Part shown: positions 2,552-64,000 of the stretch, in pieces
Layout of the letters: each line of letters opens with the position of its first letter
How positions within the stretch are numbered: position 1 is the stretch's first letter
IMG/VR virus record: IMGVR_UViG_3300032233_001072
Span: 30,949-94,948 of that record
DNA from: an uncultured virus (IMG/VR IMGVR_UViG_3300032233_001072)
Lineage: Duplodnaviria; Heunggongvirae; Uroviricota; Caudoviricetes
DNA length: 64,000 bases
Reading direction: 5' to 3' (one strand)
The notes under the pieces: model-generated
What the model was told of the DNA's origin: nothing
The model's database searches: none
The model's input: the letters and a program-made list of their open reading frames with translations, nothing else
Position numbers and translations under genes: made by a program

Positions 2552-4152
2552 GCCTGCCCGGGGACACAATCGTACGTAATTGTGTATTTAGGTGAAACCC
2601 CACCTAACAATGTAACTGGCAAAATCTTAGGAAGCAACCGAGTCAAAGCATCTTGTGTCTTTTGACGGTTTGCTGTATATGTGGACAATGAAACGTGTTG
2701 ACTAATTTTCCACAGGTGGTCAGAAGATTGGTTTTGATATAAGTTTCCACCAAAGATAGTGTTGCCATCAAAGTAGGTACCAAAGTTATTTGGCTCTACC
2801 ATCCAATAATCTAAATTAATTGTTTGCCCAGCGTTTAGTTTAAAAACAAATACTGGGTAGTAGTTATTTTTTGAGGACACTGCCTTCATTTGGTATGCAT
2901 AGCGGTTTTCACCCAACGTATTTTGACTTACCGCCACAGTGCTCCCCCATGATGACCACGAAGCGCCAGTATGCCAAAGAGGTTCATAAACAACGTCGTA
3001 GTTACCAGTGATCTCCATAGACATGTAATAAGGAACAGTAGGTGAAACAGGTGCAGTTATCGTAGAACGTACTGCTACTTTGGTTGCAGTTCCTCCACAA
3101 GTAATGCTGATGCCATATGGGTTTGCGCTATTTACAGTTACACTGTTTTCTGAGGCAACAGTCCAGTTACCTTCGTTAACAAAACGAGGGTTACCAACTA
3201 AGTTAGCCCTTTGAGAATGTACAAAAAAACTGTAATAAGGTGCGGCACCAGCAACCACCACATCTACTGCTCCACCACTTACGGCAGTTAAGTAGCCTGT
3301 TATTGCCTCAACAGTTCCTTTTTTGCGCCGAAGGTGTCCAATGTCGTGTAGTAACGCACGGGTTCTTGTTACTCCAACGTCATTAACGGACACTTCTAGC
3401 CCAAGCATTTTTGCCAACTGATCTACTGCTTCAGCCTCTGCTAAAAGTGGATCGTATTGGGTCATCACAGCATCTATGAGAGTGCGTGTGGTGTCTAGTT
3501 CAAACCCAAAAGTACTTACAAATTTGTACAGTGTTGAGTCATCTGCTTCTCTATAGTACTTAGGAATACGCTTCCATAAATCTTCTGAACTTCCGTAGTT
3601 GTTAGGTACAAGGGTTTCTAGACTTACTAATTTATTATAGTAATAAGTACCGTTTACTCCGCTTTCGTTGTAATACCCAAACAACGAATAATACGCCCAT
3701 TTACCAGACGTTGGTTCGTACACAGTTTGGGGGCCTGCATCTGTAGTTATTACATAAGAAGATTGGTGAGTGTAAAAAGAGTCAGTGCCACTAGATGAAT
3801 AAATAACTACGCCATCTTTAACCGTTTCGGGATACCCTGTTTTTGAATAAACAATTGTTATTCCTATTAATTTAGTTTCTCCTCCCAACACGTTTTCTAT
3901 GGCAGTGAAGTTTTCCGAAAGAGTCCAGTTTAAAATAACACTGTTATACGACAAAGCATTTGCTTCAAAAACAGATTCTGGACTAGTGGGGACATCTATA
4001 ATAATGTTGTCAGACCGAAGAGCAGAGTCTTGGTCAACGCTTATAGCACCCGCTTGTGTTTGTAGACTGCTGGTTCCACGGTTAAATGAACCAACGCCTA
4101 CTACTTCACCACCAAATGTATTGCGCCGAAGATTAAAGGAAACCCGTGCCAT
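2548..4152 (-). CDS. Baseplate/tail protein (tail protein I-like wedge component)
   Basis: LWKRIPKYYR, LAKMLG, RRKKGT..AI motifs; follows baseplate J. Confidence 0.7.
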   Translation of the reverse strand: MARVSFNLRRNTFGGEVVGVGSFNRGTSSLQTQAGAISVDQDSALRSDNIIIDVPTSPESVFEANALSYNSVILNWTLSENFTAIENVLGGETKLIGITIVYSKTGYPETVKDGVVIYSSSGTDSFYTHQSSYVITTDAGPQTVYEPTSGKWAYYSLFGYYNESGVNGTYYYNKLVSLETLVPNNYGSSEDLWKRIPKYYREADDSTLYKFVSTFGFELDTTRTLIDAVMTQYDPLLAEAEAVDQLAKMLGLEVSVNDVGVTRTRALLHDIGHLRRKKGTVEAITGYLTAVSGGAVDVVVAGAAPYYSFFVHSQRANLVGNPRFVNEGNWTVASENSVTVNSANPYGISITCGGTATKVAVRSTITAPVSPTVPYYMSMEITGNYDVVYEPLWHTGASWSSWGSTVAVSQNTLGENRYAYQMKAVSSKNNYYPVFVFKLNAGQTINLDYWMVEPNNFGTYFDGNTIFGGNLYQNQSSDHLWKISQHVSLSTYTANRQKTQDALTRLLPKILPVTLLGGVSPKYTITYDCVPGQA

Positions 4153-59190: not shown

Positions 59191-59545
59191 GCCCTCGTAG
59201 ACCCAGCCTCGCTGACAGTAAATAAATTGGGGGTTGTGTACTCCGTACCAAGGGGGTAGTATTCCTCGTGGAGGTCACATATCCGCCTCTTGGGGGGGTC
59301 GCCACTAGGGCACCCAGTCCCGCCAGTTCCTTGAAAATTGAAGAGTCCGCAAAAGTCCTAATAGGCATCGCTTCGCTCCCTCCCTCGTGTGTGACTGAGG
59401 AGTCCTGATTGATAATCCGCCTCGGAGATCAGAGCAAGCGCCGTCAATTGCATCATCAATGCAGGAGACGCCAAGTCCCTCGTAAGGGGGGCGTTCGGGG
59501 AATGTAACCACTACCGAATGGATTGATGCGGAACCCAACGAGGGC
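59191..59545 (-). ncRNA. Candidate ~355-nt structured RNA
   Basis: Terminal GCCCTCGT/ACGAGGGC pairing, several internal hairpins, no convincing ORF; strand uncertain. Confidence 0.3.
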
Positions 59546-59595
59546 GTGATTGCCCCATGAATGGTTGGGAGGTTTTTTATGATTCAAAATTCCTC

Positions 59596-59690
59596 AGGGT
59601 GCCATCACTTCGGTGATGGTGCCCTCAGAGCACTCAGAGCAAGTATCTGAATGTTGTGAGGGCAAAAGCCCTTTTAAAGCCTGAGGAGGC
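59596..59690 (+). promoter_or_regulatory. Structured operon leader (UUCG hairpin, overlapping helices, SD hairpin)
   Basis: AGGGTGCCATCAC-TTCG-GTGATGGTGCCCT; GCCCTCA/TGAGGGC; AGGGC-AAAA-GCCCT; GCCT-GAGG-AGGC. Confidence 0.6.
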
Positions 59691-59693
59691 ATC

Positions 59694-59921
59694 ATGAACA
59701 ACGATCCAAAATTCGTGTACATCATCACATGGTCAGATGGTCTTCAAGAGACAGTGCGCAAAAGCCATCAAGGCTTCCACTGGGGTCTTGGCTCCATCTC
59801 CTCTCATGTGGATGGCATGCGAATGAGTGTTGAAGGTTTGGGCGGGAGCATTTCCCGTCAAAAGAATCCATCTTGGGTCAACCCGAAGACCCCAGCGAAT
59901 CCTTTCGCCAAGTTCTTCTAA
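59694..59921 (+). CDS. Ribozyme-array ORF 1, hypothetical
   Basis: GAGGAGG SD. Confidence 0.8.
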   Translation: MNNDPKFVYIITWSDGLQETVRKSHQGFHWGLGSISSHVDGMRMSVEGLGGSISRQKNPSWVNPKTPANPFAKFF

Positions 59922-59926
59922 CCAAA

Positions 59927-59980
59927 ATGACGAAACGCCCGTGAGGGCGTCTACGGCTTGTAGTCGTACTGATGAGTCAT
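59927..59980 (+). ncRNA. Hammerhead ribozyme type II, copy 1 (predicted cut after 59951)
   Basis: ATGAC GAA ACGCCC-GTGA-GGGCGT C TACGGC-TTGTA-GTCGTA CTGATGA GTCAT. Confidence 0.93.
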
Positions 59981-60010
59981 CAGCAAAACGCCTGAGGAGG
60001 CACGAAAATC

Positions 60011-60529
60011 ATGAGTTACCGAGCAGACTGGGGCAACACCCCCGCATTCAAGGCACACGTCGCAGAACACGGCAATGGTGATTCATTCACCAATGATCAG
60101 GGTTATCCGAAAGAGCCTGTGAATTCCATCATGTGGCAGATGATCAGCATCAGCATGTCGTCAATCACCGAGAGCAACATTTCGGAGGTTTACGCACGGC
60201 TGAAGTTGGTTGAGAAAACCTTCAAATGTGGTGTGTGGGGTCAGCGATACATCGGCACCGATGGTGAGTATTCACATTCCCGCAACTGGGAGGATTACAC
60301 ACTCACCCCCGAGCACGTTCAGCAAGTCATGCACTTGTCGGTCAACATCTCCACCAAGTCACGCACTGCGTGGATCAAGGATGTTGTGTCGCTGATTCAG
60401 CGTGACACGTACATGGAGGAGGCACGGGAGATGTTCTTCGGGCACACACTGACCCCGAACAAGATCATCAATCTTGAGGTAAACGGGTGGAAGAAGTATT
60501 ACGAAGAGCGCATCAGCGTCAACGCATAA
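60011..60529 (+). CDS. Ribozyme-array ORF 2, hypothetical
   Basis: SD hairpin 59990-60001. Confidence 0.85.
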   Translation: MSYRADWGNTPAFKAHVAEHGNGDSFTNDQGYPKEPVNSIMWQMISISMSSITESNISEVYARLKLVEKTFKCGVWGQRYIGTDGEYSHSRNWEDYTLTPEHVQQVMHLSVNISTKSRTAWIKDVVSLIQRDTYMEEAREMFFGHTLTPNKIINLEVNGWKKYYEERISVNA

Positions 60530-60534
60530 CCCAA

Positions 60535-60588
60535 ACGACGAAACGCCCGTGAGGGCGTCTACGGATTACATCCGTACTGACGAGTCGT
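60535..60588 (+). ncRNA. Hammerhead ribozyme type II, copy 2 (cut after 60559)
   Basis: ACGAC GAA ACGCCC-GTGA-GGGCGT C TACGGA-TTACA-TCCGTA CTGACGA GTCGT. Confidence 0.93.
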
Positions 60589-60614
60589 CAGCGATGCCTG
60601 AGGAGGCAAAGATC

Positions 60615-61085
60615 ATGGGAATTTATTCATACGGAATCAGCGGTTCACGCATTCTTGACGAAATCGGTGTGGTGTCAACCATCCGCTTTCGCTTCAGCCG
60701 TAGTCACATGGATCGCCAGCGTGTTGCTCACCAAGAAAAATTGGATGAGCAGTACGAGGCACGTTGGGCTGGGAAGAGTTTTTCCCGACTCATAGCGTCG
60801 GGCGACCAGTTGCGGGTGTGGGCGGGCACAGACAGCCCGATCTGCGATGACTTTGAGCCACGTTCATCTTTTCCGCTCACTTGGCACTCTTTTGGAAAAC
60901 TGAGTGTTGATGAGCAGATGTCGTTGCCAATGTGGGTGCTGGGCGCCATGAGCGCAGTAGAGGAGGGCGAATTGCCTTTCGTGCCGACTACCAAGAAGGC
61001 GTACTACGAGATGGTGGACAAAGCATGCACAAAGCGTCTAATTGATGCAGGTTGGCTGAATGCACAGCCGTTGTTAACTAAATGA
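60615..61085 (+). CDS. Ribozyme-array ORF 3, hypothetical
   Basis: Start reassigned to MGIYSY after SD hairpin. Confidence 0.8.
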   Translation: MGIYSYGISGSRILDEIGVVSTIRFRFSRSHMDRQRVAHQEKLDEQYEARWAGKSFSRLIASGDQLRVWAGTDSPICDDFEPRSSFPLTWHSFGKLSVDEQMSLPMWVLGAMSAVEEGELPFVPTTKKAYYEMVDKACTKRLIDAGWLNAQPLLTK

Positions 61086-61135
61086 CGAAACACCCTTCGG
61101 GGTGTCTACGGCTTTCAGCCGTACTGACGAGTCAT
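61082..61135 (+). ncRNA. Hammerhead ribozyme type II, copy 3 (cut after 61106)
   Basis: ATGAC GAA ACACCC-TTCG-GGGTGT C TACGGC-TTTCA-GCCGTA CTGACGA GTCAT. Confidence 0.93.
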
Positions 61136-61167
61136 CAGTTATTACTCATTAGACCTGAGGAGGTCAT

Positions 61168-61458
61168 ATGTCATCATCAACCAACGTCCATTCCGTGACG
61201 AAGATTAAACCCGTGATCAATCACTTTGAAACTGGGGGCAAACATTCATTCACAACAATGAATTTAGAAGTCTTCGGCAAGGTGTGGATCAAAGGTGTTC
61301 TGCACGAAAACGTGGAAATCGCAACGCTTGAGTTTTTCTTTGACACTCAAGAAGAGTTCCACGAGGCTGTAGAGCCTCTTTGCCACATGCTCGTCGGGCG
61401 CCTCATGCCCAACATGAGCAAGCGTATAGAAACCAAGTCATTGACAGAACACATCTAA
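61168..61458 (+). CDS. Ribozyme-array ORF 4, hypothetical
   Basis: SD hairpin 61152-61165. Confidence 0.8.
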   Translation: MSSSTNVHSVTKIKPVINHFETGGKHSFTTMNLEVFGKVWIKGVLHENVEIATLEFFFDTQEEFHEAVEPLCHMLVGRLMPNMSKRIETKSLTEHI

Positions 61459-61461
61459 TAA

Positions 61462-61513
61462 ACGACGAAACGCCTTCGGGCGTCCATGGTTCAGAACCAT
61501 GCTGACGAGTCGT
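61462..61513 (+). ncRNA. Hammerhead ribozyme type II, copy 4 (cut after 61484)
   Basis: ACGAC GAA ACGCC-TTCG-GGCGT C CATGGT-TCAGA-ACCATG CTGACGA GTCGT. Confidence 0.93.
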
Positions 61514-61541
61514 CAGAATTATCGCCTGAGGAGGCAACATC

Positions 61542-61868
61542 ATGAATCAATTCCTTTGTGGAACCCCCACCGAGACCAACGAAGTCGCACCACTCACATG
61601 GGCAATGGAGACCATTGACTATCGCTTGCGTGGCATGGCACAACAGATTGAGCAACAACTTGCGGAAATTCAAGAGCATGCTCAACGGTTGCCAAGCGAA
61701 TTCGGATTCGGAGTCATCACTGGACGAGAGGCACACAGCACTGGGTATCAAGCCCAGCGTTCACTGGAGTCACTCGGGGACAAAGTACGGCGGGTCGCCA
61801 TGCTCAACGAACAGCACCTTGCGCTGGTCTTGTTGCGACGTGACCTTGCGTACTCGCTCAACTCATAA
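61542..61868 (+). CDS. Ribozyme-array ORF 5, helical hypothetical
   Basis: SD hairpin 61524-61535. Confidence 0.8.
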   Translation: MNQFLCGTPTETNEVAPLTWAMETIDYRLRGMAQQIEQQLAEIQEHAQRLPSEFGFGVITGREAHSTGYQAQRSLESLGDKVRRVAMLNEQHLALVLLRRDLAYSLNS

Positions 61869-61872
61869 CCAA

Positions 61873-61926
61873 ACGACGAAACACCCTTCGGGGTGTCCAT
61901 GGCTGAAAGCCATGCTGACGAGTCGT
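61873..61926 (+). ncRNA. Hammerhead ribozyme type II, copy 5 (cut after 61897)
   Basis: ACGAC GAA ACACCC-TTCG-GGGTGT C CATGGC-TGAAA-GCCATG CTGACGA GTCGT. Confidence 0.93.
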
Positions 61927-61955
61927 CAGAGATAGACCTGAGGAGGTCATTAATC

Positions 61956-62195
61956 ATGAAGTACAACATTGAATTCGTGTTCACAGGCACACGCCACGAC
62001 GGCACTTTTTATCTTGCCAATACTGGAGACACTTTCGTGAGAGTCTCCACTACACCTCATCAAGATATTGCTAAAAGGTTCGCCAGTTTTGGCGACGCTC
62101 TTGCTTTTGCAAGACGGCATGGCACCGATGGCGCAAAGTACAACCCGTTTAGTCATGGCACATGGACAGTCGTCCCAGCACTTGACACATTTTAA
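61956..62195 (+). CDS. Ribozyme-array ORF 6 (paralog of ORF 8 N-terminus)
   Basis: Start reassigned to MKYNIEF. Confidence 0.8.
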   Translation: MKYNIEFVFTGTRHDGTFYLANTGDTFVRVSTTPHQDIAKRFASFGDALAFARRHGTDGAKYNPFSHGTWTVVPALDTF

Positions 62196-62199
62196 TTAA

Positions 62200-62253
62200 A
62201 TGACGAAACACCCCTCGGGGTGTCCATGGCTTGGAGCCATGCTGATGAGTCAT
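62200..62253 (+). ncRNA. Hammerhead ribozyme type II, copy 6 (cut after 62224)
   Basis: ATGAC GAA ACACCC-CTCG-GGGTGT C CATGGC-TTGGA-GCCATG CTGATGA GTCAT. Confidence 0.93.
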
Positions 62254-62279
62254 CAGAGATGCCTGAGGAGGCAACAATC

Positions 62280-62618
62280 ATGGAATTAATCACAATCACA
62301 AAAGTCGCTCCAGCAACCCCAAAAGTTGGTGATGGTGCATCTCTTATCTTTTGGTCTGACCGTCATGCATGCACTGTCATAGCAGTCAGCCCCAGTGGCA
62401 AGAAGATCACCGTCCAGCAGGACAAAGCAACTCGGGTGGATGGCAACGGCATGTCTGACATGCAGAACTATTCCTTTGAGTGCAATCCGAACGGCGCCAT
62501 CTACCAATTCAGCCTTCGCAAGAATGGTGAGTGGTGCATGGTGGGCGATTCCTCCCGAGGGGGAGGCGTCGTCTGCTCCCTTCACGGGCGCTACGAGTAC
62601 TACGACTTTTCGTTCTAA
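62280..62618 (+). CDS. Ribozyme-array ORF 7, phage hypothetical
   Basis: PKVGDGA....WSDRHACTV...SPSGK...FSLRKNG.W...YYDFSF; start reassigned to MELITI. Confidence 0.85.
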   Translation: MELITITKVAPATPKVGDGASLIFWSDRHACTVIAVSPSGKKITVQQDKATRVDGNGMSDMQNYSFECNPNGAIYQFSLRKNGEWCMVGDSSRGGGVVCSLHGRYEYYDFSF

Positions 62619-62670
62619 ATGACGAAACGCCTTCGGGCGTCTGCGATTCATAATCGCACTGATGAGTCAT
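62619..62670 (+). ncRNA. Hammerhead ribozyme type II, copy 7 (cut after 62641)
   Basis: ATGAC GAA ACGCC-TTCG-GGCGT C TGCGAT-TCATA-ATCGCA CTGATGA GTCAT. Confidence 0.93.
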
Positions 62671-62698
62671 CAGCAAGCGACCTGAGGAGGTCAAAATC

Positions 62699-63073
62699 AT
62701 GAAGTACAACATTCAAATTACTCATGCGAACTCACGCATACCGAAGTACCTGAAAGCGCACATGATGCGTGGGGGCAAAATTGTCACCACTCGTTGGCAA
62801 CAAAGCGCTCGTGGCTTCAAGTCGTGGGAAGAGGCACAAGAGTTCATAGACAATGTCGGCACGTACTTTCGTGGTACGTGGACGGTCGTGGAATTTACTC
62901 TTGTCAACCAATTGAGTTACAGAGAGTTCAAAGTGGAAACTGACGGGACAATCGTCTGTTTTGATTGCGAGGAGAACTTCCCCAAGGAAGCCATCTTCGG
63001 TGATCCACGCTGGAGTGACCCACGTTGTGGCGACTGCTACGACGCCCACAAGTATGAAAGGAGCGCACAATAG
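62699..63073 (+). CDS. Ribozyme-array ORF 8 with C-terminal Zn finger
   Basis: MKYNIQI...GTWTVV; CFDC...CGDC. Confidence 0.85.
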   Translation: MKYNIQITHANSRIPKYLKAHMMRGGKIVTTRWQQSARGFKSWEEAQEFIDNVGTYFRGTWTVVEFTLVNQLSYREFKVETDGTIVCFDCEENFPKEAIFGDPRWSDPRCGDCYDAHKYERSAQ

Positions 63074-63087
63074 GTTCACGCCTAACA

Positions 63088-63141
63088 ACGACGAAACGCC
63101 CCAAGGGGCGTCCATGACTCATAGTCATGCTGACGAGTCGT
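63088..63141 (+). ncRNA. Hammerhead ribozyme type II, copy 8 (cut after 63112)
   Basis: ACGAC GAA ACGCCC-CAAG-GGGCGT C CATGAC-TCATA-GTCATG CTGACGA GTCGT. Confidence 0.93.
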
Positions 63142-63172
63142 CAGTTAACAAGACCTGAGGAGGTCATTAATC

Positions 63173-63349
63173 ATGAAAGATATAGCAGAAATCGTCATCA
63201 AGTTGACTGCACGTAATGCCGAACTCCTTCGTGAGTTTGAGCAGAACATGCCCGTAGGTGAAGCCCGAGCACACTTGTTCGGGAGCGTCAACGGCATCAA
63301 CACAGCCCTTGACATCATTGAAGAAATCATGGCAAGGGAGAACGTGTGA
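63173..63349 (+). CDS. Ribozyme-array ORF 9 (58 aa)
   Basis: Hand translation MKDIAEIVIKLTARNAELLREF...IMARENV; SD hairpin 63152-63165. Confidence 0.8.
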   Translation: MKDIAEIVIKLTARNAELLREFEQNMPVGEARAHLFGSVNGINTALDIIEEIMARENV

Positions 63350-63612
63350 TGCAGATTTATACAACAACTGAGTTGCGTTACATTGCCTTCACAGCGTTCA
63401 AGACTGACTTGTTCATTGTCCATAACCCCAAAGACCTTCCCATAAGTTTCTTGGGCTGGACATTGGACAACATCTACGACTGGCTCAACGAAAATGGTTA
63501 CTGGGAGTCGGGTGAGTTAGAAATCACTGATGACCAATTAGTGTTCATTGAAGTCAATCAACTTGATGGCATGCAGGACGAAGTAGTCGTCGCTGTAGAA
63601 ATCAAAATGTAG
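63349..63612 (+). CDS. Acidic hypothetical protein
   Basis: TGATG-coupled to ORF 9. Confidence 0.75.
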   Translation: MQIYTTTELRYIAFTAFKTDLFIVHNPKDLPISFLGWTLDNIYDWLNENGYWESGELEITDDQLVFIEVNQLDGMQDEVVVAVEIKM

Positions 63613-63723
63613 GCACATCACGGGGTGTCCCCCCGCCCCGTGGTGTCCTCAAAGGTCATCAGCAGGTTGCTGGTGGCTTTTGAGGGCATACAATTGCCCG
63701 TTACACCTAGACCTGAGGAGGTC
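63613..63723 (+). promoter_or_regulatory. Second structured leader (same architecture as 59596-59690)
   Basis: ACATCACGGGG/CCCCGTGGTGT; TGTCCTCAAAGGTCATCAGCA/TGCTGGTGGCTTTTGAGGGCA; GGGCA/TGCCC; GACCT-GAGG-AGGTC. Confidence 0.6.
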
Positions 63724-63729
63724 AAAATC

Positions 63730-64000
63730 ATGAACCAAAACTTAAACGAACTTCGGTCGTTCCTTGCCAGTCTTGACAAGGCACCTGAGCCAATGCACGT
63801 CTCGTCTGAATTGCACGCACTATCAAGTGCCAGCGATGCAGACATTGACATTGTGCTGGATCGTGCGCTCTACCCATTTCAACGTGCTGGTGTGGCTTAT
63901 GCCCTCCGCCAGCGCCGATGCATCATCGGTGATGAGATGGGGCTGGGCAAAACGATTCAAGGTATCGCTGTCGTCGCTCAGGCTCACAAAGAGGGAATGA
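63730..64000 (+). CDS. SNF2-family helicase, N-terminal part (truncated by window end)
   Basis: Hand translation ...LYPFQRAGVAYALRQRRCIIGDEMGLGKTIQ...; SD hairpin upstream; this frame is not in the ORF track. Confidence 0.92.
   Translation, partial: MNQNLNELRSFLASLDKAPEPMHVSSELHALSSASDADIDIVLDRALYPFQRAGVAYALRQRRCIIGDEMGLGKTIQGIAVVAQAHKEGM

Follow-up and report, generated by a model that had tools for sequence, protein, structure and literature searches.

In viroid and satellite RNAs, hammerhead ribozymes adopt inactive alternative folds that sequester the catalytic core, and conformation controls both self-cleavage and ligation. RiboJ insulators, which are synthetic, combine an engineered type III hammerhead with an unrelated hairpin added ahead of the ribosome-binding site. 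The closest described relatives of the ribozymes reported here are the type II hammerheads of prophage arrays (RF02276), in whose consensus loop I forms a pseudoknot with the 3' tail and stem II is often only 2 bp long (Perreault et al. 2011, PMC3088659). The role of self-cleaving ribozymes in bacteria and phages is still open, and a 2019 review states that 'additional work is needed' (PMC6765202).

The window analyzed here is a 64,000-nucleotide stretch of DNA from an uncultured Caudoviricetes virus. A near-identity search of its ribozyme array against GenBank phages returned no match. Between positions 59927 and 63144, each of the eight junctions between small phage genes contains one complete type II hammerhead with CAG directly behind it. 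The unit runs AYGAC-GAAA-stem III hairpin-GUC-stem I (7 bp, closed by a triloop that varies between copies)-CUGAYGA-GUCRU-CAG, with cleavage predicted directly after GUC, and the pattern CGAAAC...GTC...CTGANGAG is matched exactly by 8/8 copies. Each contains the conserved core (C3 U4 G5 A6 N7 G8 A9 ... G12 A13 A14, with the pairs G10.1-C11.1 and A15.1-U16.1). Stems I and III read as loop-closed and stem II as open, and the strands follow the type II order: stem II 3' strand, GAAA, stem III, cut, stem I, CUGANGA, stem II 5' strand. By sequence, all eight copies are type II hammerheads, and they are predicted to self-cleave. They share with the prophage-array ribozymes the core, the GUC triplet, the permuted topology and the multicopy arrangement between small phage genes, but unlike the described consensus they have a stem II of 4 to 5 bp and a tail predicted to pair with the core rather than with loop I (PMC3088659).

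The 3' end of every complete hammerhead is an exact 15-nt palindrome, CTGAYGA-G-TCRTCAG (8/8 copies), and CTGAYGAGTCRTCAG matches exactly on the + strand at 59969, 60577, 61124, 61502, 61915, 62242, 62659 and 63130. The palindrome pattern had no match in 100 shuffles (chance expectation, 0). CAG is invariant (8/8), and the A-rich sequence upstream offers it no partner. R10.4 is complementary to Y11.4 in all eight copies and N7 to R10.4 in seven, copy 3 being the exception (C 61128 opposite A 61134). Our counts thus agree with a preliminary description of this DNA, which had claimed a palindrome over the core with an invariant CAG at eight sites and agreement of N7 with stem II in all copies except copy 3. 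The features are as follows.

59927 to 59983, + strand: hammerhead 1 (U type); RF02276 at 36.4 bits and pattern match
59927 to 59931 and 59952 to 59968, + strand: stem II 3' strand and stem I of hammerhead 1; predicted cleavage at 59951/59952
59969 to 59983, + strand: core-clamp palindrome 1; N7 is U 59973, 10.4 is A 59979, 11.4 (stem II partner) is U 59928
60535 to 60591, + strand: hammerhead 2 (C type); predicted cleavage at 60559/60560; RF02276 at 32.7 bits
60577 to 60591, + strand: core-clamp palindrome 2; N7 is C 60581, 10.4 is G 60587, 11.4 is C 60536
61082 to 61138, + strand: hammerhead 3; predicted cleavage at 61106/61107; RF02276 at 28.2 bits
61124 to 61138, + strand: core-clamp palindrome 3, the exception; N7 is C 61128, opposite 10.4, A 61134; 11.4 is U 61083
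61462 to 61516, + strand: hammerhead 4 (C type); predicted cleavage at 61484/61485
61502 to 61516, + strand: core-clamp palindrome 4; N7 at 61506, 10.4 at 61512, 11.4 at 61463
61873 to 61929, + strand: hammerhead 5 (C type); predicted cleavage at 61897/61898
61915 to 61929, + strand: core-clamp palindrome 5; N7 at 61919, 10.4 at 61925, 11.4 at 61874
62200 to 62256, + strand: hammerhead 6 (U type); predicted cleavage at 62224/62225; RF02276 at 35.1 bits
62242 to 62256, + strand: core-clamp palindrome 6; N7 at 62246, 10.4 at 62252, 11.4 at 62201
62619 to 62673, + strand: hammerhead 7 (U type); predicted cleavage at 62641/62642
62659 to 62673, + strand: core-clamp palindrome 7; N7 at 62663, 10.4 at 62669, 11.4 at 62620
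63088 to 63144, + strand: hammerhead 8 (C type); predicted cleavage at 63112/63113; RF02276 at 28.4 bits
63130 to 63144, + strand: core-clamp palindrome 8; N7 at 63134, 10.4 at 63140, 11.4 at 63089

Some phage type II hammerheads form a subclass in which an arm (R)UCAG behind the core is complementary to core positions C3 to N7, and usually to G8 as well. In the window this arm comprises the stem II 5' strand plus CAG, so that one strand is common to two mutually exclusive folds. In the active fold GUCRU would pair with AYGAC, which lies some 45 nt upstream; in the alternative hairpin, CUGAYG-AGU-CRUCAG, which we call the core clamp, C3, G5, A6 and G8 would be buried and stem II lost. Five of the eight copies match RF02276 at an E value of ≤0.01 with 28 to 36 bits, below the gathering score of 37, at which threshold the window has no hits; the other three were not reported by the model even at E values up to 10. 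These low scores arise because stem II is 4 nt longer and the pseudoknot tail is missing, and not because of the core. Most clamp-class copies in four other loci likewise fall below the gathering threshold, as do all eight here. Complementarity of at least 4 nt between loop I and the tail was found in none of 30 clamp-class hammerheads (longest, ≤3 nt) versus 22/139, the pseudoknot being a majority feature of the RF02276 family and not an obligatory one.

The window alone proves little about the clamp, and the decisive evidence comes from unrelated DNA. Each paralogue keeps its own state across six related contigs (L202, L287, L294, L313, L315 and L321), which means that the 7/8 agreement represents two inherited types rather than seven independent events. 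Orthologues of copy 3 in two of these contigs (L313:724-788 and L321:2414-2478) have U7/A10.4, implying that the mismatch of copy 3 arose recently in this genome by a single change.

To survey other phages, we used pattern scans that were unbiased in allowing any base at both N7 and its partner, parsed the matches by exhaustive enumeration of alternative parses, and obtained 276 unique type II hammerheads. Independence was set by BLAST clustering of whole loci, which grouped 90 loci into 35 clusters without mutual DNA similarity. UCAG lies 2 to 8 nt after G10.1 in 101 of the 276 hammerheads, and among these 101, N7 and the base before UCAG form a Watson-Crick pair in 90, a U.G pair in 3 and a mismatch in 8 (93/101 paired). 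Window copy 3 is one of the eight mismatches, and U.U exceptions occur at L131 and L137. U.G and C.A exceptions are equally frequent (three each, n = 101), and wobble pairs therefore carry no strand signal. Depending on the lineage, the partner of N7 sits at position 10.2, 10.4, 10.5, 10.6 or 10.7; both U-A and C-G are found in registers 2, 4, 5 and 6, and C-G also in register 7. At the level of the 35 clusters, U-A occurs in 22, C-G in 14 and both in 7 (Fisher p = 1e-5). In control hammerheads, which share the 4-bp stem II but lack UCAG, N7 and the next base showed no association (p = 0.54), and nonhammerhead matches of the same pattern, which lie in coding DNA, carry many N7/partner combinations. 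The preliminary description had named an absence of N7 covariation from homologous arrays among the observations that would speak against its proposal; homologous and nonhomologous arrays alike show the covariation.

Two alignments gave the same picture. The N7 pair is U-A in 33, C-G in 10, U-G in 2 and other in 2 sequences of alignment A1, and U-A in 17, C-G in 13 and other in 2 of alignment A2. In A2, column 10.4 also covaries with 11.4 (U-A in 18, C-G in 12), a triple covariation of 11.4, 10.4 and N7 of the kind that follows from one strand choosing between two helices; in this alignment, then, exclusive helices with a common strand are both backed by covariation. The hammerhead stems are themselves well supported: the five pairs counted in stem I all show double changes and are 100% standard in both alignments, stem II is 98 to 99.5% paired with covariation at 10.4-11.4 and 10.2-11.2, and stem III covaries too. 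Four clamp pairs are invariant in A1 and A2 because the search pattern and the conserved core dictate them, so that the evidence for the clamp consists of the N7 pair and enrichment in the unbiased scan. TCAG outnumbers every other 4-mer at offsets 4 to 8 after G10.1 in that sample (27/169 versus a mean of 3.25), and the reverse word, GACT, occurs there once. The phages and prophages that carry the motif have links to at least five bacterial phyla. The clamp is optional, being absent from roughly four fifths of the type II hammerheads sampled, and its frequency is similar in multi- and single-ribozyme loci (20/97 versus 15/81; p = 0.85), a comparison limited by fragment length.

Nearest-neighbor energies place the clamp 2.4 to 2.7 kcal/mol below the hammerhead secondary structure in seven of the eight window copies; for 82 others it is favored by 1.5 to 5.0 kcal/mol, and the barrier is approximately 9 to 11 kcal/mol. 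Copy 3 is the only window copy for which the hammerhead is the predicted minimum-energy fold. RNAalifold chose the clamp and not stem II on both alignments. In the predicted 3' product the clamp has a pair probability of 0.86 to 1.0 in seven of eight copies (0.90 to 0.94 in copy 1), and in an energy model without tertiary or Mg2+ terms it dominates before cleavage as well, with a stem II probability of about 0. Covariation across unrelated phages and these energetics together strongly support a selected RNA structure, formed by C3 to G8 and the 3' tail, that is predicted to exclude stem II and the active core. The preliminary description had proposed that a CUGAYG/CRUCAG hairpin competes with the active fold, and it is the structural part of that proposal that these two lines of evidence uphold.

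What the clamp does is less certain, and we see a roughly even chance that it acts after cleavage, as a product lock and leader insulator. Before cleavage the clamp and hammerhead folds would interconvert on a time scale of about a second, and stabilization of the core by tertiary contacts and Mg2+, which lies outside the energy model, would let the hammerhead form and cut. Once it has cut, the topology suggests that the 4- to 5-bp stem II would be the sole link between the two pieces; the clamp would then displace the upstream piece and make cleavage effectively irreversible. The downstream mRNA would be base paired from its first nucleotide, with stem I stacked on the clamp and followed by an A-rich spacer, the Shine-Dalgarno sequence (SD) and AUG. 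The ribozyme remnant would thereby become two abutting hairpins that insulate the ribosome site, a compact, context-independent leader in which the remnant is kept off the ribosome-binding site and other ribozyme halves. When the arm was reversed in silico, the unpaired probability of the downstream SD dropped from a median of 0.79 to 0.64 (Wilcoxon p = 0.0015), a modest effect among mutually dependent sequences. An intermolecular stem II of 4 to 5 bp would, however, dissociate unaided, so the lock is not thermodynamically required, and since the clamp is predicted to dominate before cleavage, a gate fits equally well.

Such a gate or timer, in which the clamp holds the ribozyme off until the shared strand shifts to stem II and so makes junction cleavage conditional or delayed, we regard as possible but doubtful. 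In all 82+7 cases the clamp is predicted to be the more stable of the two secondary structures, and arm and stem II use one strand, as in riboswitch expression platforms and in keeping with the triple covariation of 11.4, 10.4 and N7. With variable triloops and no loop I-tail pseudoknot in the window, tertiary stabilization may also be small. However, no conserved trigger element was found, and a barrier of that height would allow exchange within about a second, slowing cleavage without blocking it. A ribosome departing from the upstream stop codon, which adjoins the stem II 3' strand, could be the trigger: a stop codon lies ≤12 nt upstream of stem II in 74/81 clamp hammerheads, but such proximity is equally common without the clamp (145/175). 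Tested prophage-array type II hammerheads, none of them known to carry a clamp, cleave efficiently during transcription (PMC3088659, PMC8782182). The narrower proposal of a two-state switch, in which events in the upstream cistron, such as a terminating ribosome over the stem II 3' strand, would allocate the shared strand, seems to us unlikely. If it were true, the junction would be cut, and the downstream message released and stabilized, only after the upstream gene had been translated, and the 'free' hammerhead position N7 would be under selection for an inactive fold.

It is very unlikely that the complementarity has no function of its own and stems from duplication of ribozyme units or from a neutral effect of stem II sequence choice. 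The window lineage lacks independent switches, with paralogue states kept across its six related contigs, and most type II hammerheads lack the arm. Against this, both states recur in the 35 unrelated clusters and five registers, with 7 clusters mixed; the association vanishes without UCAG; no word is more enriched than TCAG behind stem II in the unbiased sample; and CAG is partnerless in the hammerhead fold. Highly improbable is a DNA-level site (an operator, recombination or methylation site) built on the inverted repeat CTGAY...RTCAG, an alternative raised in the preliminary description. The palindrome is perfect in the window, cassette gain and loss end points among relatives fall in ribozyme-plus-leader repeats, and the equal numbers of U.G and C.A exceptions show no strand asymmetry. 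Yet the two arms stand 3 to 8 nt apart depending on the lineage, a variability not typical of protein sites, and the left arm coincides with the ribozyme core, which is invariant. In all the phages and prophages concerned, with their links to five or more bacterial phyla, the motif sits in a complete hammerhead and on its sense strand, and the end points are explained by the whole 90-nt repeat rather than by the palindrome. Barely credible is the idea, in part also an earlier suggestion, that the partner of the UCAG tail is CUGA in the SD hairpin downstream, or that the tail makes a tertiary contact with N7 while the ribozyme is in its active fold: although every window SD hairpin contains CUGA 7 to 19 nt after the tail, CUGA follows within 30 nt in only 2/81 clamp hammerheads from other lineages, predicted folds keep clamp and SD hairpin apart and never use UCAG-CUGA pairing, and N7 covaries only within the UCAG helix context and in variable registers, which fits a hairpin with a variable loop and not a fixed three-dimensional contact. 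We also considered the tail as an extension of stem II and rejected it, its upstream partner being A-rich in the window and elsewhere offering only occasional 3- to 4-nt matches.

The core clamp differs from its nearest parallels. The competitor in viroid and satellite RNAs is a global rod or branched fold of a circular replicon; here it would be a local 6-bp hairpin of an mRNA leader, made from the ribozyme's own stem II strand. As in RiboJ, self-cleavage is predicted to strip the upstream context and leave a folded 5' end with an accessible ribosome site behind it, but the clamp is a natural hairpin that draws on the catalytic core itself. One strand serving two exclusive helices, one of which masks the core, is also the design of engineered cis-blocked hammerheads (PMC3553993) and of riboswitch platforms; unlike these, clamp hammerheads show no evident trigger, be it a ligand, a trans-activator or something else. 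For type II hammerheads, neither pairing between core and tail nor covariation of N7 was found described in the searchable literature, which excludes most subscription journals, and the clamp sequences were not found in the accessible portion of the supplementary files of PMC3088659. What we describe is thus a known ribozyme with a selected second, inactive fold, for which the literature searched holds no earlier description.

Because the clamp subclass lies mostly below the Rfam threshold, annotation at that threshold has largely missed it. Being natural and compact, the clamp may serve as a model for designing ribozyme insulators for synthetic operons, and it explains why N7 is nonrandom in this subclass of hammerheads. 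It also gives the vague idea of 'mRNA processing' a specific, testable form. A second fold that is kept by covariation, lies wholly within the 3' product and would silence the core suggests that selection on these phage ribozymes acts beyond the cut.

The window forms the final 64 kb of an IMG/VR virus record of 94,948 bases, and between 59.7 and 63.3 kb it holds eight small plus-strand genes, each followed by one element of ~57 nt; no PHROG match was found for seven of the ten genes tested. Every element runs AYGAC-GAAA-hairpin-GUC-hairpin-CUGAYGA-GUCRU-CAG and is, judged by its sequence, a complete type II hammerhead, with the core (C3-A9, G12-A14, A15.1-U16.1, C17), a stem III of 5 to 6 bp with a tetraloop, a stem I of 7 bp with a variable triloop, and an open stem II. 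The Rfam type II model scores five copies at 28 to 36 bits, below its gathering score of 37, and leaves three unreported even at E up to 10, such that all eight fall below gathering, because stem II is 4 nt longer and the pseudoknot tail is absent. Two GC-rich structured elements that flank the array (59596-59672 and 63613-63700) are not hammerheads, and a permissive Rfam scan of 59400-64000 gave only chance-level non-hammerhead matches, all with E above 6 and well short of gathering; one overlaps the element at 59596-59672.

The preliminary description had pointed to an invariant CAG that completes a palindrome over the core, and this was borne out: all eight copies match the 15-nt palindrome CTGAYGA-G-TCRTCAG exactly, and none of 100 shuffles contained it. 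No upstream partner for the CAG was found in the window copies. The hammerhead fold uses GUCRU to pair with AYGAC (R10.4 and Y11.4 covary in 8/8 copies), and GUCRU-CAG also complements the core from C3 to G8, so that a single strand can be drawn into stem II or into a hairpin, CUGAYG-AGU-CRUCAG, hereafter the clamp. In the established hammerhead structure C3 pairs with G8, and the active site includes G5 and A6; catalysis is precluded once C3-G8 is taken up in a helix, so the clamp fold would be inactive. The covariation of the free core position N7 with stem II in seven of eight copies likewise held, the sole exception being copy 3, where C at 61128 faces A at 61134. Taken alone, this agreement is weak evidence. 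In six related contigs (L202, L287, L294, L313, L315 and L321) each paralogue, recognised by its stem I, retains its U-A or C-G state, and the 7/8 in the window therefore amounts to two inherited types.

Public collections were scanned with N7 and its presumed partner both left unconstrained. Viral contigs were searched with three patterns (GAC-GAAAC...GTC...CTGANGAGTC; CTGANGAGTCCNTCAG; CGTC...CTGANGAGTCNTCAG), and hammerhead-anchored versions were run on metagenomes and on one genome per prokaryote species. An exhaustive parser retained sites with C-GAAA, two proper hairpins, U-H and CUGANGAG; because it demands C11.1-GAAA and CUGANGAG, core variants are missed from the 330 hammerheads (276 distinct) that it returned. 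UCAG begins 2 to 8 nt after G10.1 (the register) in 101 of the 276, and N7 pairs with the base before UCAG in 93 of these 101 (90 Watson-Crick and 3 U.G pairs; 8 mismatches). The partner is 10.2, within stem II (GRUC/GAYC), in register 2; it is 10.4, also within stem II, in register 4, the form seen in the window; and it lies 1 to 3 nt past a 4-bp stem II (GUCC/GGAC) in registers 5 to 7. Both U-A and C-G were seen in registers 2, 4, 5 and 6, with C-G in register 7 too. Pair counts were 33 U-A, 10 C-G, 2 U-G and 2 other among 47 register-5 sequences, and 17 U-A, 13 C-G and 2 other among 32 distinct register-4 sequences. The register-4 partner column also covaries with 11.4 (18 U-A, 12 C-G), and such triple covariation of 11.4, 10.4 and N7 is the pattern expected of a shared strand.

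The 90 loci fell into 35 clusters between which DNA similarity is undetectable; 22 clusters contain U-A and 14 contain C-G, with both states in seven. With each cluster-state counted once, N7 and its partner are associated at a Fisher p = 1e-5; the number of independent events is here a lower-bound estimate by DNA clustering and not a phylogenetic test. Where a 4-bp stem II lacks UCAG, N7 is unlinked to the next base (59/7 versus 31/6, p = 0.54), and non-hammerhead matches to the pattern were coding DNA with many N7/partner combinations. In the unbiased first scan, which fixed only GAC/GUC, TCAG was the most frequent of the 256 four-letter words at offsets 4 to 8 after G10.1 (27/169 versus a mean of 3.25), outnumbering even Shine-Dalgarno (SD) words, while the reverse, GACT, occurred once; the arm, the (R)UCAG tail that pairs with the core, was present in ~18% of that sample. 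The conserved core dictates the four invariant clamp pairs, as does the search pattern in our register-5 and register-4 alignments, and the evidence therefore consists of the N7 pair and its reliance on helix context, together with the shifts of register and the TCAG enrichment. The proposal that a hairpin competes with the active fold was thus upheld by covariation in 35 unrelated clusters that is lost without UCAG.

Folding predictions agree. The isolated palindrome has a folding energy of -4.4 kcal/mol in its U-A form and -5.8 kcal/mol in its C-G form, and stems I and III plus the clamp form the minimum-energy structure in seven of eight window ribozymes, 2.4 to 2.7 kcal/mol under the hammerhead secondary structure. 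For 82 clamp hammerheads taken from elsewhere the minimum is the clamp every time, with a gap of 1.5 to 5.0 kcal/mol and a direct-path barrier to the hammerhead of ~9 to 11 kcal/mol, which would imply fold exchange on the order of a second. RNAalifold returned stems III and I plus the clamp independently from both alignments. The energy model omits core non-canonical pairs, Mg2+ and tertiary contacts, so the fold balance before cleavage may differ from the predicted one; in the 3' product, clamp pair probabilities are 0.86 to 1.0 in seven of eight window copies.

Functional readings here draw on sequence, covariation and nearest-neighbour energies, and cleavage of the window copies is itself predicted. 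The cut would yield a 5' piece ending in stem III with a cyclic phosphate and a 3' piece beginning with stem I, followed by CUGAYGA and the stem II strand, the two joined solely by a 4- to 5-bp stem II; the predicted 3' pieces of the eight window copies begin at 59952, 60560, 61107, 61485, 61898, 62225, 62642 and 63113. The clamp would be contained entirely in the 3' piece, starting right after stem I, which favours a role after cleavage; the stem I and clamp hairpins would abut, leaving the RNA paired from its first nucleotide. Beyond the clamp lies a spacer rich in A and poor in G (49% A, median length 9 nt), followed by the SD, with the start codon ~20 nt away. In this position the clamp may strip the shared strand off the upstream piece, conceal the ribozyme remnant and give all cistrons one uniform compact 5' leader. 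Stripping would matter because tertiary-stabilised hammerheads can religate appreciably; a figure cited in PMC2553840 puts the Schistosoma hammerhead at about one third ligated at equilibrium. When the arm was reversed in silico, predicted SD accessibility fell (median 0.79 to 0.64, p = 0.0015), an effect that is only suggestive, since these sequences share ancestry and the model is a crude one. That the clamp is a product fold acting after cleavage is, in our judgement, an even call.

The main rival, which we consider unlikely, is that the clamp acts as a gate or timer ahead of cleavage. By prediction the clamp also prevails in the precursor, and in 74 of 81 clamp cases a stop codon is no more than 12 nt from stem II; since it adjoins or overlaps the stem II 3' strand, a terminating ribosome would cover stem II and, on the gate reading, leave the shared strand to the clamp. 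However, stop codons are placed alike without the clamp (145/175), and no conserved trigger was found. Taking the upstream ribozyme edges in the window (59919-63090) together with 256 hammerheads from other loci, ~85% of the type II hammerheads sampled have a stop codon that overlaps the stem II 3' strand or stands at most 12 nt upstream of it, with or without a clamp; at copy 3 the UGA (61083-61085) forms part of AUGAC.

The remaining weight goes to neutral inheritance, a DNA site or other pairings. The suggested DNA operator or recombination site has the perfect palindrome of the window in its favour, but its left arm is ribozyme core and the arm spacing varies, which a DNA-binding site would not tolerate. 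Such a site would also have to coincide with the core across phages and prophages that the one-genome-per-species scan tied to Actinomycetota, Acidobacteriota, Verrucomicrobiota, a candidate-phylum (Peribacteria) bacterium and Salinivenus. Pairing of UCAG with CUGA of the downstream SD hairpin, also suggested, is confined to the window lineage (CUGA lies within 30 nt in 2 of 81 others) and was never selected in predicted folds. A tertiary contact of the active fold is ruled out by an N7 partner at 10.2, 10.4, 10.5, 10.6 or 10.7 depending on lineage, a shift that the 3- to 8-nt loop of an RNA hairpin accommodates, and extension of stem II by the tail fails for want of a matching upstream sequence. 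A predicted RNA hairpin of core C3-G8 with the tail explains the covariation, unlike these other structural readings.

Seven of the eight start codons share a conserved context, mostly with one more A before it.

AUCAUG(A/G) start contexts in the window, plus strand
60005-60013, start context
60609-60617, start context
61536-61544, start context
61950-61958, start context
62274-62282, start context
62693-62701, start context
63167-63175, start context

Its UCAU complements the AUGA found in the stem II 3' strand of U-type copies; RNAfold joins the two by 4 bp in the copy 1, 6 and 7 precursors, a pairing that is probably too weak to matter. A different tail was seen in the cultured Streptomyces phage Rooney (MZ648033.1), which carries three unannotated hammerheads in intergenic gaps.

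Type II hammerheads in Rooney (L331)
about 1600-1690, intergenic hammerhead
about 3010-3095, intergenic hammerhead
about 3995-4075, intergenic hammerhead

In this class GUCC (stem II 5' strand) is followed within 5 to 8 nt by AAGGAGGAC, an SD that closes with another copy of GGAC, the upstream stem II strand. GUCC could thus take as its partner either the upstream strand (active) or the SD region. Tails of this type are also present in L058, L100, L016 and L036.

Inactive alternative folds of viroid hammerheads and RiboJ-type insulators are conceptual relatives of the clamp, as are engineered cis-blocked ribozymes and riboswitch-like shared-strand switches. Prophage arrays of type II hammerheads around single genes were described in 2011 (PMC3088659), so the array as such is not new, and cleavage in vivo has been shown for three such ribozymes in Desulfovibrio (PMC8782182). 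The literature searched yielded no account of a helix between core and tail or of N7 covariation in type II hammerheads. The characteristic tertiary element of the prophage ribozymes is a loop I-tail pseudoknot (PMC3088659), whereas the clamp subclass lacks pseudoknot potential (0/30 versus 22/139). It also lies mostly below the threshold of the Rfam type II family, with just one clamp-class copy across four other loci passing gathering, and annotation at that threshold therefore misses most of the subclass.

Relatives of the window phage differ in array content. L202 and L287 hold a register-5 copy within the same array as register-4 copies; both lack the gene between ribozymes 2 and 3 (60615-61085) and, together with L321, an initial stretch of ~220 nt in the gene after ribozyme 7 (62703-62922). 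The leader CAAGCGACC... is found behind different ribozyme paralogues in different relatives. Cassette gain and loss therefore ends in the ~90-nt ribozyme-plus-leader repeats, which are 75 to 84% identical between paralogues. Because the copy 3 orthologues in L313 and L321 carry U7/A10.4, the exception in copy 3 is a recent point change in the window genome. Among the window copies, only copy 3 has the active hammerhead as its predicted energy minimum, and its N7 mismatch offers a ready-made natural experimental control.
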